Positions 39,123 through 44,735 are shown, counted from the first letter of the stretch. The stretch: 64,000 nucleotides of DNA from Gemmatimonadota bacterium (GCA_036679645.1 JAZDCY010000033.1:13700-77699), one strand, 5' to 3'. Notes: generated from the letters alone by a model not told the origin. A program made the numbers and translations.

Positions 39123-40153
39123 GCAACCACTCCGCCGTCCACCACATTGAACAGACCCATCCAGCCAAGCTCGGCGAATTCCGCCTGGTGCGCATGAAAC
39201 ATGAACCGGCCGGTATCGTCGTACGTGAACTCGAGAATGTGTCGCTCACCCTGACACATCATCAACGTGTCGGTGAACTCGTGCGGCGTGAGCGATGTCC
39301 CTGTGCGGTACACGTGGAACAAATTTCCGTGGAGATGCATGGAGTTCACGGGATCGAATTCGAGGGCGTTCACGATGTAGATCCGCTGGAGTTGTCCCTT
39401 CTGGACGATTATGGGATCCTGTTGATATGCGAACGGGACGGTGTTGACGGCGTACACTTCGTTCGAGCCGTCGAAGTTCGTATCGAAGCCGTTCAGGACC
39501 ATGACCATCTCGCGCGCGGGGGGACGCGGCGTTTTCGGATCGACGATGAACGTGCCGTAGAGCCCCTTGGCGATGTGCTTCTTGAGTGGGAGCGTGTGGC
39601 AGTGATAGAGGTGCAGCCCCCACGGCTTCGCCTCGAATTCGTACTCGAACGCTTCGCCCGGCTGGACGATCTCGAAAACCCCATCCATCCGCGCTACGTG
39701 GCTGCCGTGGAAGTGAATCGTATGCGCGTGAGATCCGGCATTCCGAAAATGCACCCGCACCACGTCGCCCTCGGTGGCACGCAAGGTGGGTCCGGGAACC
39801 TGGCCATTATAGGTCCAGGCCGGGTAGAAAACGTTGGGCGCGACTTCGATCTCGCGATCGACCGCCGTGATCTCGTACTCGCGCACCGTGCGGCCGTCGG
39901 CCAGCCGCGAGACCTGCCCGTAATCGAAGTGTTCCAGGAATGTGGCCGGATCGATCGATCCGTCCGTCACGCGTCCCGTCACGGCACCGTTTGCCGGGTC
40001 GTGTGCGCTGGCCCCGGCGAGGCGCAGCGCCCGCTCGGGCGCCAAGCGGCGTTCGGCAGCGCGCAGCGTTTGGGTCGCGGCCGCGACGCCAGCCACACCG
40101 AGTGCGCCGCGTCGCAACAGGTCCCGCCGGCTCAGCTTGTCCCGATCGCTCAT
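39119..40153 (-). CDS. Tat-exported two-domain multicopper oxidase
   Basis: SRRDLL signal; HTIHFH, YHCH, MHLH, FHAH. Confidence 0.92.
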   Translation of the reverse strand: MSDRDKLSRRDLLRRGALGVAGVAAATQTLRAAERRLAPERALRLAGASAHDPANGAVTGRVTDGSIDPATFLEHFDYGQVSRLADGRTVREYEITAVDREIEVAPNVFYPAWTYNGQVPGPTLRATEGDVVRVHFRNAGSHAHTIHFHGSHVARMDGVFEIVQPGEAFEYEFEAKPWGLHLYHCHTLPLKKHIAKGLYGTFIVDPKTPRPPAREMVMVLNGFDTNFDGSNEVYAVNTVPFAYQQDPIIVQKGQLQRIYIVNALEFDPVNSMHLHGNLFHVYRTGTSLTPHEFTDTLMMCQGERHILEFTYDDTGRFMFHAHQAEFAELGWMGLFNVVDGGVVA

Positions 40154-40851
40154 GCTGCACCTCCTTCGACGACGATGGTGCAGCGCAGCGACGCCGCAAG
40201 CTCGTATCCAATGACCTGCTGTATCCCTTCGCGCACGCAGATCGTAACAGGGCCCCGGAAGGGTTTCCGCTCGATCACCTCGAACTCCGCGCCCAGAACC
40301 AACCCGAGTGACGCGATATAGCGCAGTCGCTCCGGATCCTTGTCACTCACCATGCGGAACTCGGCGCACAGGCCGGGGTCGATCTCCGTGAGCGGCACAT
40401 GCGCGGTCTCCTCGATCTCGCCCGATCGGCTGGGAATGGGCGCACCGTGCGGATCGTGCTGCGGATCGCCGAGAACGCGGACCATGCGTTCGATCAACTC
40501 GTCCGAGACTGCATGCTCCAAGCGTTCCGCCTCTTCGTGGACGGAGTCCCAATCGTATCCGAGTTGCGAGGTCAGATAGGACTCGAGCACGCGGTGACGC
40601 CGCACAATGCGCAGCGCGGCTGTGCGTCCCGGCAACGTCAATTGGACGCCACGGTAGGGGACATGCTCCAGCAATCGCGCCTCGGCCAGGCGCTTGAGCA
40701 TGCCGGAGACCGACGCGGGCGCGACCTCGAGCGCCTCCGCGATCGCACTCGTCTGCACGGGGCCACCTTCGGCCCCGAGGGCGTAGATCGCCTTGAGGTA
40801 GTCCTCGGTCGATCGCGACAGACCGGCTGGAGCTGCTGCAGCTGCACCCAT
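40150..40851 (-). CDS. mntR: DtxR/MntR metal-dependent regulator with FeoA domain
   Basis: EDYLKAIY, RRHR..E, EAERLEH, DPHG.PIP. Confidence 0.92.
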   Translation of the reverse strand: MGAAAAAPAGLSRSTEDYLKAIYALGAEGGPVQTSAIAEALEVAPASVSGMLKRLAEARLLEHVPYRGVQLTLPGRTAALRIVRRHRVLESYLTSQLGYDWDSVHEEAERLEHAVSDELIERMVRVLGDPQHDPHGAPIPSRSGEIEETAHVPLTEIDPGLCAEFRMVSDKDPERLRYIASLGLVLGAEFEVIERKPFRGPVTICVREGIQQVIGYELAASLRCTIVVEGGAA

Positions 40852-40887: not shown

Positions 40888-40928
40888 AAATGTTTCGTGA
40901 CGTGCCGAAAAGCAAGGGAATTATGTAC

Positions 40929-40957
40929 TTGACGTAAACCGTTGGTAGTGTTATATT
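40929..40957 (+). promoter_or_regulatory. Sigma70 promoter in the left end (transposase)
   Basis: TTGACG-17-TATATT. Confidence 0.7.
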
Positions 40958-40986
40958 TCGTCAGGTAAAAAGATAGGAACCTGACG

Positions 40987-41982
40987 ATGACCCGCATAGC
41001 CGGAGACAAGGACCCCATAACTACCGCCCTCCCAAAGGCTTGCGTTGACGAGCGGATGGCGATGGACTTCCTAGAGACCCTGATCTGGGGCTACGAGCCC
41101 GCCTGCCCCCGCTGTGGCGATCTGGACGTGTACCCGATGAAGGAACGCAAGACCGGGGAACGTCAGGCCAACGGGCGTTGGCGCTGTCGGGGCTGCAAGC
41201 AGCAGTACACGGTGCGGACGGGCACCATCATGGAGGACTCTCGCATCCCGCTCAAGTATTGGTGTTTTGCGTTCTGGCGGGCGTGCAGCTCGAAGAAGGG
41301 CGTGAGCGCCCTCCAGATCAAACGCGAGACTGGCTTGAGCTACAAGAGCGCCTTGTTCCTGATGCACCGGATTCGCTACGCGATGAGTGGCGGCCCCGAC
41401 CGTCCGTTGCGGGGGACCGTGGAGGTAGATGAGACCTACGTGGGCGGGAAGCCCCGTCGCCACACGCGGAAGCAGAACCGCCGCCCCGGCGAGAACCCAA
41501 ACGTCCAGGGCCGCGCCCCGGACTTCCAGGATCGCAAGACGCCCGTAGTCGCCTTGGTCGAGCGAGGCGGGCCCGCGAAGGCGATCTCGCCAGGGGACGA
41601 ACACGTCACCGGCAAGAACCTCAAGCGGATCATGAGAGAAACCGTGGACCCGTCAGCGACGATCATGACGGACGAGTCCGGCGTCTATCGCGGGATCGGT
41701 CGCCACTTCGAGGGCGGACATTACACCGTCCGGCACTCGATCGGCGAGTACGTCCGGGGCGACGTGACCACCAACACGGTCGAGGGGTTCTTCTCACTCT
41801 TGAAGCGGGGTGTTGTTGGGACGTTTCACCACCTCAGTCGGAAGCACCTGGGGCGGTACGTCAGCGAGTTCGAGTTTAGGTACAACCATCGCAAGGTGAG
41901 TGACGGGGTGCGGACGGTGGCGGCGATCCGGGCGGGGATGAAGAAGCGGCTCACTTACGCCGACCATCTAGCGAGTGTATGA
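40987..41982 (+). CDS. IS1595 (ISXO2-like) DDE transposase
   Basis: Zn ribbon CPRC/CRGC; VEVDETYVGG, IMTDE, TNTVEG, EF.FRYN. Confidence 0.95.
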   Translation: MTRIAGDKDPITTALPKACVDERMAMDFLETLIWGYEPACPRCGDLDVYPMKERKTGERQANGRWRCRGCKQQYTVRTGTIMEDSRIPLKYWCFAFWRACSSKKGVSALQIKRETGLSYKSALFLMHRIRYAMSGGPDRPLRGTVEVDETYVGGKPRRHTRKQNRRPGENPNVQGRAPDFQDRKTPVVALVERGGPAKAISPGDEHVTGKNLKRIMRETVDPSATIMTDESGVYRGIGRHFEGGHYTVRHSIGEYVRGDVTTNTVEGFFSLLKRGVVGTFHHLSRKHLGRYVSEFEFRYNHRKVSDGVRTVAAIRAGMKKRLTYADHLASV

Positions 41983-42014
41983 ACAGTGGAGAACGAGACC
42001 TAGCGGAGGGACCT

Positions 42015-42260
42015 ATGGCGGAGAAGCCGAACGGGGAGAGCATCCGGTTGCGCGAGCAGATCATCGAGGATGAGGTCTCCGGTTTGACGATCCAGATCGA
42101 GCGTACCCCGAATGGCGAGGGGCGGGTCCGGCTGTTCGGCAACATCCCGTTCCGTCATCGCGATTTCGCCTTTGATCGCGACGGGAGATTGGTGGGAACG
42201 GGAACTGGCACATGTTCAACATGTGCCAGCCCCACGTCATGGTTGAAGGTGGTGGACTAG
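42015..42260 (+). CDS. Hypothetical passenger protein
   Basis: GGAGGGG RBS; an in-frame ATG at 41979 overlaps the transposase stop; C-terminal CSTC. Confidence 0.6.
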   Translation: MAEKPNGESIRLREQIIEDEVSGLTIQIERTPNGEGRVRLFGNIPFRHRDFAFDRDGRLVGTGTGTCSTCASPTSWLKVVD

Positions 42261-42556
42261 GGCGTCACGTCGTTGCACGCTGGCAACCGACCGTGACCGT
42301 TGTAGTACTCTTGTAGAAGCTCTCGCTCGCGCCCGAGTGGGGCGGCGTTCACTTCCGTCTTGAAGAATTGGGCTCGCTGTGTGCACGGGCCCTCGTTCCC
42401 CGCGTAGTGACTACGGAGGCGATCACGAATACTGATCGTCGAACTGCCGTAGTAGATGATGTCGGGCATCGTATCGAGCTGATAGACGCCCGGTTGTGCC
42501 GGTGCGCCTTCTATGCGCTCCGGAGTGAAACTCTGGTAATCGCCTTGAATCGGCAT
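42257..42556 (-). CDS. Small standalone GIY-YIG nuclease-like protein
   Basis: PGVY, IIYYG, IRDRL..H, RERELL, P.CN; GGGAGG RBS. Confidence 0.8.
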   Translation of the reverse strand: MPIQGDYQSFTPERIEGAPAQPGVYQLDTMPDIIYYGSSTISIRDRLRSHYAGNEGPCTQRAQFFKTEVNAAPLGRERELLQEYYNGHGRLPACNDVTP

Positions 42557-42598
42557 AAGCCGGATCCTCCCTTGGTGACATTTTTCACATTGTCAGAA

Positions 42599-42639
42599 GG
42601 GGGACTCGCCCATATATTAGTCAGCTTGGCGAGTCCCCC
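42599..42639 (-). terminator. Strong hairpin directly after the tRNA CCA
   Basis: gggggactcgcc / ggcgagtccccc; only a weak U tract. Confidence 0.55.
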
Positions 42640-42744
42640 TGGTGCGCCTGACGGGACTCGAACCCGCACGGGGTGTATCAGCCTACACAGCGGCACCCCA
42701 CTGGCTCCCAAGGCCAGCGTGTCTACCGGTTCCACCACAGACGC
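42640..42744 (-). tRNA. Atypical tRNA: Leu-type body, TGG (Pro) anticodon, very long variable arm
   Basis: GCGTCTG/CAGGCGC, A73, encoded CCA; D arm GTGGAACCGGTAGACAC; CTGGC-CTTGGGA-GCCAG; T arm GCGGG-TTCGAGT-CCCGT. Confidence 0.85.
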
Positions 42745-42795
42745 GAGCGGGGATGGCCGGAGGGCCCGAAGGCCCCCGGCCGCTAGGTCAGGGGG

Positions 42796-42807
42796 TTATG
42801 GCGGCAT
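42796..42807 (-). CDS. Candidate minigene Met-Pro-Pro-stop
   Basis: GAGGAGG-6 nt-ATG CCG CCA TAA. Confidence 0.55.
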   Translation of the reverse strand: MPP

Positions 42808-42894
42808 GGCAGACCTCCTCATGTATCGGCGGCGGTTTCGGAGCGATCTTGCCAAAGAAGATCCGAGACCGCCGCCTCGTTATTGGGGTTAGAA

Positions 42895-43323
42895 CTAGAA
42901 CGGAACGTCCTTCGGTTGATCGTCCTCGGCGCTCCACTCTGCTAGCCCATACCAGCCCCGTTTCGGGCTGCTAAAAACATCATCACGTCGCCTTAACGCA
43001 GACACAAGCGAACCCCTGATCTTGTCTGCGGCCTCGTCCGCTCGATACCCACGTCGTTGCATCTCCGCGATCAACCCTTGAATACGAACAATTTTCCCAA
43101 GTTCCTTGAGAACGGTCTGCGCTTGGCTGACGAGTTCACTTGACCGCGCCCGCCGCCGTTTCGGCGTCCCGTTAGTGCTCGGCATATCGTCGCCAAAAAG
43201 CTCTATGTGTTGCTCAAGCCCGGCGATCAGAGTTAGTATAGATTTGCGCCTTCGATCAATCTGGGTCAGTTCCCGTTTGAGGCGCTTAAGAGTCACGCGG
43301 TAGCTTTTTGTGTGATCCGTCAT
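42895..43323 (-). CDS. Coiled-coil plus winged-helix (HARE-HTH-like) protein
   Basis: N-terminal coiled coil; C-terminal ..F....RGWYGL.EW; TTGATC-16-TATCTT just upstream suggests a leaderless start. Confidence 0.7.
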   Translation of the reverse strand: MTDHTKSYRVTLKRLKRELTQIDRRRKSILTLIAGLEQHIELFGDDMPSTNGTPKRRRARSSELVSQAQTVLKELGKIVRIQGLIAEMQRRGYRADEAADKIRGSLVSALRRRDDVFSSPKRGWYGLAEWSAEDDQPKDVPF

Positions 43324-43345
43324 GCTCAGCAAGATAGCGAGTAAT

Positions 43346-43534
43346 ATGTCAGGATCAAGCGCCACAAACGGACCCGGAGAAGCCGCTGCCAATAAGGACG
43401 AGCGCCCAGGTCCTGACCCTGAGCGGCTCAAAGTCGAGGGGAACTGGAAGGACGCCCTCAGACGGGCTCTCCGAAAGAAGAAGCCAGCGGAGGGATGGCC
43501 GGGAAAAACCGCGAAAAACAAAGGGGCCCCTTAG
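43346..43534 (+). CDS. Small basic hypothetical protein
   Basis: PGPDPERLKVEGNWKDALRRALRKKKPAEGWP; followed by a ggggcccc/ggggcccc hairpin. Confidence 0.6.
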   Translation: MSGSSATNGPGEAAANKDERPGPDPERLKVEGNWKDALRRALRKKKPAEGWPGKTAKNKGAP

Positions 43535-43647
43535 TCGGGGGCCCCAAGAACTACATCAGCTTGCCAAGCCTTAGGAAGGTAGGACCTTCCCCATCTGATA
43601 GCAAGACCATTCGGTGTATCTTCTATTGACAAGCACGGCAGCAGGTG

Positions 43648-43720
43648 GGTGACGAACCGGACTTGAACCGGTTACTTCAGCTTGGCAAGCCGATGTGTTA
43701 CCAGTTACACTACCGCCACC
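43648..43720 (-). tRNA. Atypical tRNA: His-type acceptor (G-1:C73), GCC (Gly) anticodon
   Basis: G-GTGGCGG/TCGTCAC-C; D arm GTGT-AACTGGTA-ACAC; TCGGC-TTGCCAA-GCTGA; T arm ACCGG-TTCAAGT-CCGGT; CCA not encoded. Confidence 0.8.
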
Positions 43721-44010
43721 ACGACGGTTGCCGTACCTCTTCTGGATGCCAACCAAGCGGCGACCGCCTCACCTGTTACTGCCACAAACAATCTACTCGG
43801 GTGGAGCCCTTACTGCAACAACTGCCTGGACCGGCCCCCAGCCTAATCCTACCGAGGGGTGGCCGGGCCCTCGAAATAGAGAGGGGCCGGGCGTTTATCC
43901 CGGCCCCCAGCCCGATTAGTTGGCTAACTGCCCTGCCAGTCGATTATGCTGGCTGACCGACTTCGAGTAAAGCCGATCTAGTTCCTCCGGAGCCAGCGGA
44001 CCGGCCCGCA
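43721..44010 (-). ncRNA. Candidate structured non-coding RNA or tRNA leader
   Basis: No convincing ORF; several GC-rich hairpins; lies downstream of an inward promoter. Confidence 0.4.
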
Positions 44011-44015
44011 CTCCC

Positions 44016-44043
44016 AAGATAACGCCTCACCGCATTTACTCAA
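44016..44043 (-). promoter_or_regulatory. Inward-facing sigma70-like promoter in the right end
   Basis: TTGAGT-16-TATCTT, mirroring the left-end promoter. Confidence 0.5.
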
Positions 44044-44071
44044 GTACACAATTCCCAAAAGCAAGAGCAGG

Positions 44072-44653
44072 TCAGATGCTGCGGAGTAACTCCATGAACG
44101 GAGCGAGGATACGCTCGGTCATCCCCCAAATCAGGTGGGCGCCAACACGGTACCCGGACACGACGAGATCCTGCCCGCGCACGCATACGGTCTCGGTCAC
44201 ACGCGACTCCTCTAGTTCGTCCAGTCCGGCCCAGACGTGCAGCGCGACCTCAGGGCAGGACTGCACGGCGGGCGGACTCGAGAGGCCGAAGACGAAGGGA
44301 CGGACGACGATCTGGGGAAGATGGGGGCTGACCGGGCTGAGATCGCCCAGCTGACCGAGGTAATCAGCGCGCGACAAATCGAGTCCGGTTTCCTCCCGGG
44401 CCTCACGAGCTACGGTGGCGAGAAGATCGGCGTCCGCGGGGTCTCGTCTGCCGCCGGGTAGCGCCATCTGCCCCGACCAGGGATCTCCAAGACGCTCTGT
44501 GCGTTTAATAAAGAGAGCCCGCAAGCCGGCATCGTCGGACGGCACGAGCATGAGCGCAACCGCAGCCTCGCGTAGATCTGGCGTGATTGGGACTTGGCGA
44601 GGCGGCGATACCGACAGCCGGTCACGTATCGCCTCAAATGTGATATTGGTCAC
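44072..44653 (-). CDS. CoA pyrophosphatase (Nudix)
   Basis: AAV.L, SGQMALPGG, REAREETG, IWGMT. Confidence 0.92.
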   Translation of the reverse strand: MTNITFEAIRDRLSVSPPRQVPITPDLREAAVALMLVPSDDAGLRALFIKRTERLGDPWSGQMALPGGRRDPADADLLATVAREAREETGLDLSRADYLGQLGDLSPVSPHLPQIVVRPFVFGLSSPPAVQSCPEVALHVWAGLDELEESRVTETVCVRGQDLVVSGYRVGAHLIWGMTERILAPFMELLRSI

Positions 44654-44735
44654 AGTTTTTCCAAAAAGGGCATACCTCTTGCGGCCTCCTTTATCTTGGG
44701 TGCGGAAAGACGGCAACCTTTACCGGGAGGTTCCT

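Follow-up and report, generated by a model that had tools for sequence, protein, structure and literature searches.

The output of IS1- and IS3-type transposase genes is gated by programmed frameshifting, a rare recoding event, and in Streptomyces the transfer RNA (tRNA) encoded by bldA, tRNA-Leu(UAA), gates genes through their rare TTA codons. Here we describe an IS1595 transposon (positions 40908 to 44064) that may gate its transposase through a tRNA of its own. It lies in a window of 64,000 nucleotides, the whole stretch of DNA analysed, from a Gemmatimonadota bacterium (GCA_036679645.1 JAZDCY010000033.1:13700-77699), and carries two tRNA genes whose bodies and anticodons disagree. One of these has a leucine-type body and the proline anticodon UGG (the Leu/UGG tRNA); we put at about 0.68 the probability that it is charged with leucine and inserts this residue at CCA codon 16 when the element's transposase is translated, completing the enzyme, a reading that rests on sequence comparison. 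The gate would then be a tRNA changing the meaning of a codon, rather than the slippery mRNA site of IS1 and IS3, although tRNA-less sisters of the element recall those insertion sequences in that they appear to hide a C-terminal leucine in a shifted frame. In contrast to the element's tRNA as envisioned here, the bldA product is an ordinary host tRNA that reads its cognate codon and leaves the code as it is.

Natural bacterial tRNAs in which body and anticodon disagree have precedents. The accessible text of PMC10404621 describes tRNA-ProX of Streptomyces and Kitasatospora (tRNA-ProA, -ProN and -ProT), in which a proline body (C1:G72) is joined to an alanine, asparagine or threonine anticodon and served by a dedicated prolyl-tRNA synthetase (ProRSx), and which was shown to mistranslate and to be toxic. 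The present element has the reverse arrangement, a leucine body with a proline anticodon, borne on a transposon, with no synthetase among its open reading frames (ORFs) in profile scans and with the matching codon fixed in its own gene; a proline body with an adjacent ProRSx is not what it carries, and 'transpos', 'antisense' and 'LeuRS' are not mentioned in the accessible text of that paper. The allo-tRNAs and the G-1 'tRNA1' of Mukai et al. (PMC5389517, also accessible in part) likewise have mismatched anticodons and lie near toxin-antitoxin and transposon genes, but allo-tRNAs have 8/4 or 9/3 folds and serine or alanine identity, whereas Rfam alignments and family counts give 7/5 cloverleaves here. 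The accessible supplement text of that study contains neither UGG nor transposase, and its accessible main text contains neither 'antisense' nor 'complementary'.

Two other described systems bear on a Met-Pro-Pro-stop minigene that precedes the Leu/UGG tRNA. As far as the accessible text of PMC8501985 goes, CreT RNA toxins likewise affect the supply of a tRNA by means of a short ORF in which two codons of one kind follow each other: a rare host tRNA is sequestered by CreT, which CRISPR-Cas represses with the help of CreA. The minigene shares with CreTA a short ORF led by a Shine-Dalgarno sequence and two consecutive like codons, but it ends Pro-Pro-stop directly upstream of the very tRNA that reads its last codon; none of the five element ORFs matched a Cas family in general profile scans, which included no search aimed at cas. 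TnaC-type arrest leader peptides (PMC11890864, accessible in part) likewise come from an upstream ORF that ends Pro-stop and controls a downstream gene, whereas the minigenes considered here have 3-5 codons and would respond to miscoding by the very tRNA encoded downstream. A literature search, whose scope left outside most subscription papers, bioRxiv supplements and ISfinder notes, found no recoding tRNA borne on an insertion sequence, nor any fixation of a matching codon or small RNA directed at an anticodon.

A leucine-type tRNA and the CCA codons of its transposase

The Leu/UGG tRNA (42640 to 42744, minus strand, anticodon at 42710-42708) has a long variable arm and an encoded CCA end. 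Rfam model RF00005 scores it at 53.2 bits and the other cargo tRNA, with anticodon GCC, at 57.1 bits, both as ordinary 7/5 cloverleaves; ARAGORN calls the GCC tRNA only. The element copy has A14, A15:U48, G18G19, A20a, A73 and G1:C72. Together with the class II variable arm, A73, A15:U48, G18G19 and A20a give it bacterial tRNA-Leu identity, and of the bacterial tRNA-Pro features it lacks C1:G72 and G15:C48 and has anticodon G35 and G36 with A73. In the accessible part of PMC9976931 the leucine determinants of E. coli are the set A14, A15:U48, A20a and A73, the anticodon not being among them, and bacterial-type ProRS requires G72. Charging of the Leu/UGG tRNA by the host leucyl-tRNA synthetase (LeuRS) is predicted on these features. 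The host genome itself encodes tRNAs for His, Gly, Pro and Leu, including tRNA-Pro(UGG).

This is a real, intact and recurring system. Among 80 metagenome loci found with the transposase, many of them on short contigs, 48 hold an intact Leu/UGG tRNA under a strict filter and 51 under a looser one. A DNA-pattern scan of GTDB for the tRNA returned at least 122 hits, of which 80 were analysed with their flanks; 48 of these 80 are intact Leu-body/UGG genes, spread over eight phyla, and an IS1595 transposase lies in the locus of 37 of the 48 versus 2 of the 32 other hits. Homologs carry neither ordinary Leu anticodons nor the marks of random decay, since UGG is found in 39 of 40 distinct intact Leu-type tRNAs of related elements. 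Across 88 distinct Leu/UGG sequences A14A15, U48 and A20a are each present in all 88, A73 in 87 and G1:C72 in 81, while the stems vary with compensation.

The transposase itself (40987 to 41982, plus strand) is a 331-residue frame free of stops that passes the cut-offs of PF12762 (129.8 bits), PF12760 (40.3 bits) and NF033547 (186.9 bits) and retains both the zinc ribbon (C40/C43/C67/C70) and the DDE residues (D148/D229/E266). Its predicted sigma70-type promoter (40929 to 40957, plus strand; 10/12 consensus with TG) overlaps the terminal inverted repeat. The predicted site of leucine recoding is CCA codon 16 (41032 to 41034), to which both the codon pattern across relatives and helix position point: in an AlphaFold model residue 16 falls within helix 10-18, with a predicted local distance difference test (pLDDT) score of about 96. 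CCA codon 202 (41590 to 41592) is a possible second site, in a column that reads V38 I14 in tRNA-less elements, with the alignment ambiguous beside an insertion. A fold search returned only generic integrase/transposase folds and no IS1595 structure.

The codon pattern comes from a comparison of 81 tRNA-bearing with 69 tRNA-less transposases, 39 of 189 having been excluded as unclear because of short flanks, another tRNA or a second transposase in the locus; one element counted as tRNA-less (L342) was later found with a Leu/UGG-like tRNA further away, and the counts were kept. At the residue-16 column every proline in tRNA-bearing elements is encoded by CCA (58/58), and the tRNA-less elements have I12 F11 A9 M8 N7. 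At a C-terminal column that follows a conserved tyrosine, CCA accounts for 56 of 57 prolines in tRNA-bearing elements, against L21 T13 S6 A4 and four prolines, none of them CCA, in tRNA-less ones; a third column has 18/18 CCA versus no proline. By comparison, CCA supplies only 12 of 279 codons at five structural proline columns. Scored against tRNA-less columns, CCA (n=299) has a mean BLOSUM difference (Leu minus Pro) of -0.31, whereas the other proline codons range from -2.5 to -3.5; in tRNA-less elements CCA gives -2.43, that is, it behaves as proline. Synonymous sites flanking CCA vary freely, so the constraint falls on the codon. Ten phylogenetically independent pairs, drawn on a tree of 150 proteins with two trait columns left in, gave six differences in the same direction, none in the opposite direction and four cases of no difference (p=0.031).

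At the C-terminal column, among 47 tRNA-less elements, leucine is found in frame in 21, in the +1 frame in 16 and in the -1 frame in 4 (41/47), and in 19 of 20 shifted-frame cases the leucine is followed by threonine, valine or isoleucine, as in in-frame elements. Among 69 tRNA-bearing elements, 52 have CCA at this column without a shifted leucine; elements with no Tyr or Phe three residues before the column were left out of the shifted-frame analysis. The C-terminal position thus appears to want leucine, with relatives gating it either by frameshift or by tRNA. One tRNA-less clade fixes the rare codon ACT there (12/13), because of shifted-frame leucine and not a hidden tRNA: Rfam finds none in seven of eight loci, and the eighth has a Ser-type CUA tRNA. 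Shifted-frame leucine at the end of the transposase gene is itself a candidate programmed frameshift in tRNA-less IS1595 elements (L366, L370, L390, L391, L435, L438, L360, L372, L394 and L082, in the +1 or -1 frame), whose transposase 3' ends often have a longer basic tail.

In a few cases anticodon switches seem to track codons. A Ser-type body with UAA (L341) accompanies 4/4 TTA codons at polar columns, and two elements that are 69% identical (L409 and L411), with Leu bodies and UGC, both use GCA where tRNA-less elements have M/L/I or F/I. Three other accounts of the codon were tried and set aside. Antisense pairing of the anticodon loop with transposase mRNA would have the bases flanking CCA covary with tRNA positions 37-38, which they do not; the idea that the C-terminal CCA merely overlaps the antisense promoter described below fails because CCA is retained even where 1-2 kb separate it from the tRNA or the tRNA is upstream; and a match of TCT at the C-terminal column of L078/L084 to their GGA anticodon was dropped because TCT also gives leucine in the +1 frame.

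Taken as a mechanism, host LeuRS would charge the Leu/UGG tRNA, which would insert leucine at CCA16, and production of working transposase would be confined to times when the tRNA is expressed. CCA would be the best switch codon: CCG and CCC/CCU are each served by tRNAs of their own in this host, so that CCA would depend on UGG alone, a competition that we infer. Damage to host proteins could be limited by two brakes, an antisense RNA and the minigene. The first-pass annotation had already raised programmed misreading of proline codons as leucine, which the codon pattern supports; that the probable target is the element's own transposase was not part of that proposal.

Control elements around the Leu/UGG tRNA

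A predicted antisense promoter (42590 to 42618, plus strand; 10/12 consensus) points into the 3' end of the Leu/UGG tRNA, and such promoters are enriched across the family. With an approximate promoter matrix, an opposite-strand sigma70-like promoter scoring >=8, with its -10 within 30 nt of the tRNA 3' end, is found at 40 of 88 tRNAs; the corresponding counts are 73 in 1760 shuffles, 4 in 88 for the sense strand, 4 in 88 for positions further away and 1 in 50 for host tRNAs. From this convergent promoter an antisense RNA would be made over the tRNA. A trans-acting anti-anticodon RNA was also sought for the Leu/UGG family and rejected, the best duplex being 11 nt in 69. The hairpin directly after the CCA end (42599 to 42639, minus strand, a predicted fold) has a loop (42621-42633) identical at 12 of 13 nt to part of the GCC tRNA's anticodon arm.

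Upstream of the tRNA lies a Shine-Dalgarno sequence with the Met-Pro-Pro-stop minigene (42796 to 42820, minus strand; CCG, CCA), a predicted stall sensor that recurs in the family. Ten of 97 family members have a Pro-Pro-stop minigene of 3-5 codons within 300 nt upstream of the tRNA, all ten also pass a Shine-Dalgarno filter, and the last codon is CCA in seven and CCT in three; shuffles yield a mean of 1.44 (at most 6 in 200), other dipeptides 0-2, and the downstream side 0. A C-terminal proline slows translation termination, so reading of the last minigene codon as leucine would remove the stall. Ribosomes would accordingly be envisioned to stall on the minigene unless its final CCA is read as leucine, and the minigene could report the tRNA's own level to a C-rich stretch and a hairpin ahead of the tRNA as negative feedback, with Rho and attenuation as candidate routes. 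A GC-rich hairpin does fold between minigene and tRNA (42755 to 42781, minus strand), and a hairpin holds the same place in most minigene loci. Antisense promoter and minigene together are likely to control the level of the Leu/UGG tRNA.

Several observations concern the same region. A short conserved motif starts three bases past the minigene stop in 6 of 10 loci (window 42790-42795, L231, L232, L251, L263 and L288). In other loci conserved structured leaders take the minigene's place upstream of the tRNA, one in L017, L020, L023 and L045 and another in L024, L028, L032 and L071; one of the two keeps a T-loop-like motif and resembles a tRNA remnant.

Further upstream stands the gene of a 142-residue protein (42895 to 43323, minus strand) with a coiled coil and a HARE-HTH-like winged helix, the latter a weak match below cut-off (E=0.017). 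It is followed by a hairpin (42828 to 42876, minus strand, from folding and a repeat scan) and preceded, 7 nt before its start, by a promoter-like site read by eye and unscored in the promoter scan (43331 to 43358, minus strand). A homolog search with this protein returned itself alone. Among upstream neighbours of the family HARE-HTH is the commonest, with 10 hits in a scan that took in 61 of 70 ORFs, and the protein is likely a regulator of the tRNA operon. In L051, L062, L281 and L352 an HTH/IrrE-like peptidase gene lies immediately upstream of the Leu/UGG tRNA, hinting at stress-linked induction.

Weighing the readings of the tRNA

A number of observations weigh against leucine recoding of CCA16. 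The host ProRS belongs to family I, a type that in archaea and humans is independent of G72 (PMC9976931, accessible part), so charging of the Leu/UGG tRNA with proline is possible in this host. Proline stands at position 16 in 118 of the 120 closest proteins, a set that includes the query and two unparsed entries, and leucine in none of the 120. Clade members without the UGG tRNA have at this position proline encoded by CCG/CCT (L341, L093 and L347) or arginine (L409 and L411), not leucine, so leucine is perhaps tolerated there and not required. The element's own transposase has histidine (CAT) at the C-terminal site, so this copy relies on codon 16 and perhaps 202; 14 of 69 tRNA-bearing elements lack both CCA and a Leu codon at that site, and one element (L059) has CCA16 with no tRNA within 5 kb on either side. 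The independent pairs include six informative ones only. The tRNA-bearing set was selected by similarity to the element transposase or by the tRNA pattern, and none of 55 transposases chosen by the family model from two other groups has the Leu/UGG tRNA, so the tRNA is clade-restricted. As for the brakes, a strong antisense promoter is missing at 48 of 88 tRNAs by the same approximate matrix, and 87 of 97 tRNAs have no minigene within 300 nt.

It is possible to envision the Leu/UGG tRNA instead as a mistranslating RNA toxin held by its antisense RNA, acting in addiction or as suicide when transcription stops, with CCA a by-product: Leu-tolerant transposase sites would have drifted to CCA in the constant company of the tRNA. 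The enrichment of the antisense promoter is in keeping with this, as are the avoidance of CCA at structural prolines, the toxin-antitoxin-type genes among some upstream neighbours (PIN, ParE, MqsA, Fic) and the toxicity in E. coli of mistranslating tRNA-ProX genes (PMC10404621, accessible text). Tolerance, however, predicts avoidance of CCA and not its fixation at 56/57 and 58/58 in proteins averaging 51% identity; it also leaves the shifted-frame leucine of tRNA-less sisters unexplained, and CCA, at only 12% of host proline codons, would be a mild target. We regard a toxin of this kind as unlikely. The family I ProRS opens another route, in which the enzyme reads the anticodon, the tRNA carries proline and the outcome is a bldA-like supply switch that speeds a rare codon. 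G35, G36, G37 and A73 in the element copy, the rarity of CCA in the host and the proline at residue 16 of 118/120 close proteins would all suit such a switch, but the host already owns a tRNA-Pro(UGG), the leucine core determinants are present in 88/88 tRNAs and C1:G72 in only 4/88, CCA sites align to hydrophobic columns and not to proline columns, and the family includes 19 Pseudomonadota hits. A supply of proline is on balance improbable.

Equally to be weighed is a non-productive role, in which the tRNA binds CCA on the ribosome and stalls or corrupts the transposase, repressing transposition until the antisense RNA relieves it. CCA sites do lie near both ends of the transposase gene, and the accessible text of PMC5389517 reports G-1 tRNAs that are charged but unused and allo-tRNAs that were inactive or lethal. 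A brake that worked by misreading would nevertheless be expected to use essential prolines, where CCA is avoided (12/279), and the cloverleaf is a canonical 7/5 with intact stems; we consider this brake very improbable. Should leucine recoding of CCA16 hold, a selfish element would be gating its enzyme by giving a sense codon another meaning, a kind of transposition control and of natural genetic-code variation that we did not find described in the literature covered. Deliberate bacterial mistranslation would gain a defined target, one codon and one tRNA, and it would follow that these transposases are mistranslated in databases and such tRNAs misannotated as tRNA-Pro.

The His-like tRNA, other cargo and the element's boundaries

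The two tRNAs of the element are separate modules. The second (43647 to 43720, minus strand; anticodon GCC at 43686-43684), called by ARAGORN and Rfam, has no encoded CCA end. It has G-1:C73 and the same acceptor start as host tRNA-His, without the GUG anticodon of tRNA-His, and has C73 and U2:A71 where tRNA-Gly would have U73 and C2:G71 (PMC9976931, accessible part). Its closest precedent is the G-1 species with a non-His anticodon reported in the accessible text of Mukai et al. (PMC5389517), which is charged by HisRS with no histidine inserted in E. coli; toxicity of the GCC tRNA could accordingly be due either to miscoding or to blocking. Invariant glycines of the transposase are encoded by GGC, so the GCC tRNA cannot serve it, and GGC-to-His recoding of the transposase was rejected on that ground. 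GGC makes up 3.7% of host codons, so misreading by this tRNA would be harmful. Upstream of the tRNA are a structured leader with predicted hairpins (43721 to 43942, minus strand), for which no clear homolog was seen among the fetched loci, and a promoter-like site (43943 to 43971, minus strand; 9/12 consensus).

Downstream, a small RNA is predicted. Its promoter-like site (43576 to 43604, minus strand) has a 17-nt spacer and was read by eye, unscored in the promoter scan, as were like layouts elsewhere; its 5' part (43552 to 43570, minus strand) is complementary to the GCC anticodon arm over an 18-nt duplex with 2 G:U pairs, and an intrinsic-terminator-like hairpin ends it (43523 to 43545, minus strand). 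The computed pairing energy is -34.1 kcal/mol with the GCC tRNA and -22.4 with the host tRNA that comes next, and ordinary host tRNAs reach at most a 13-nt antisense match with three G:U pairs. The same layout accompanies five of six other odd Leu-body tRNAs in the element's own genome and one in an insertion sequence locus (L062); in a 7x7 cross-pairing each small RNA matches its own tRNA over 14-19 nt and the others over at most 9. In a pattern search, 9 of 301 genomes yielded 16 such Leu-body tRNAs, the element's own genome contributing four, with five anticodons reading Ala or Val and promoters read by eye; all 16 have a cognate 12-23-nt match, and the pairing covaries in 16/16, these being of the Leu-body type, unlike the His-like body of the GCC tRNA. 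Among 300 relatives one His-like body homolog was found (L457), with a GAT anticodon, G-1:C73 kept and no clear anti-anticodon match. The predicted pairing is that of a cognate, specific antidote in a toxin-antitoxin pair, and the GCC tRNA with its small RNA may be a separately captured module of RNA toxin and RNA antidote, a proposal to which we give about even odds.

The stand-alone Leu-body tRNAs with Ala or Val anticodons (own genome, G000: C7:211519, C11:12621, C32:56781, C47:754 and C59:8760; elsewhere L440-L455) are followed by a promoter-like site, a complement of the anticodon arm and a terminator-like hairpin. A sixth Leu-like body in the same genome (C7:130360-130443), with a GAT anticodon, shows no clear antisense partner and may be decayed. 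Among 120 viral loci, 20 distinct intact Leu-like tRNAs with non-A35 anticodons have no antisense partner, the best match being 8 nt; such phage tRNA-like genes combine a Leu-type D arm, a long variable arm and G73 with mostly GTT/GTC anticodons (L100, L104, L105, L111, L113, L142, L153, L164, L166, L178, L210 and L213). Beside the Leu/UGG tRNA itself, second tRNAs that are irregular and short-armed occur in several loci (L017:2265, L018:2077, L045:1374, L034:5585, L039:3539, L241:2848, L338:5246, L222:1402, L244:3916 and L256:4045), with varied anticodons and without a downstream antisense match. Other IS1595 loci hold mismatched or suppressor tRNAs (L341:5128-5330, L339:3693, L093:1854, L393:4515-4615 and L035:316), comprising Ser-type bodies (UAA, UUA, CAA, ACG or CUA) and a short UUA tRNA.

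A broader reading, to which we would assign half our credence, is that this IS1595 clade keeps a private code, in which each element would bring a tRNA that gives one host codon a new meaning (CCA read as Leu here, TTA as Ser or GCA as Leu among switched relatives), would spell key positions of its transposase with that codon and would tune the tRNA by an antisense RNA and by a minigene sensing the miscoding, in place of the frameshift gate of tRNA-less sisters, and that the element also carries a member of an undescribed RNA-only toxin-antidote class, a mismatched tRNA checked by a small RNA that pairs with its anticodon arm. If so, small RNAs of this anti-anticodon kind would provide genetic code expansion with natural, programmable means of turning suppressor tRNAs off.

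The first-pass annotation had joined both tRNAs, the minigene and a nuclease into one system linked to defence or addiction. The two mismatched tRNAs and the cargo order hold as it described them, but the single system does not: GGC at invariant glycines, the lone homolog with another anticodon (GAT) and an antisense RNA of its own set the His-like tRNA apart. Addiction would suit the His-like/GCC module alone, as we propose it, and translation sensing fits the minigene. The link to defence found no support, as PADLOC models gave no convincing match to the cargo and the nuclease gene was absent from the other fetched loci. That gene, a 99-residue GIY-YIG/DUF7508-like ORF (42257 to 42556, minus strand), has Pfam hits just below cut-off (E=1.7e-4), so that its assignment, like that of the winged helix, is weak; it has no tblastn match in the other fetched loci and is probably an interchangeable passenger. 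The antisense promoter, the anti-GCC small RNA, transposase CCA16 and two small plus-strand ORFs had gone unmentioned. One of these ORFs encodes 93 residues with no family match in profile scans (41979 to 42260); the other, of 70 residues (43322 to 43534), has no Pfam match and belongs to a small family common in these elements, with tblastn matches in 25 other loci.

IS1595 elements are defined by terminal inverted repeats (TIRs) and an 8-bp target duplication. Here the left TIR (40916 to 40932, plus strand, 17 bp) matches the right one (44040 to 44056, minus strand, 17 bp) at 16 of 17 positions, a perfect 8-bp AAAAGCAA duplication flanks them (40908 to 40915, identical to 44057 to 44064), and the DDE domain and N-terminal zinc ribbon are in place, which confirms an intact IS1595 transposon, as first annotated. 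It is present as a single copy in its own genome assembly (92.7% complete), and in a genome of the same genus (G001) the two flanks meet with no element between them, an empty site. Its neighbours are genes for a DtxR/MntR-type regulator and a NUDIX protein (window 40150-40851 and 44072-44716); it lies just upstream of the regulator's start, and the insertion may have altered the regulator's promoter.

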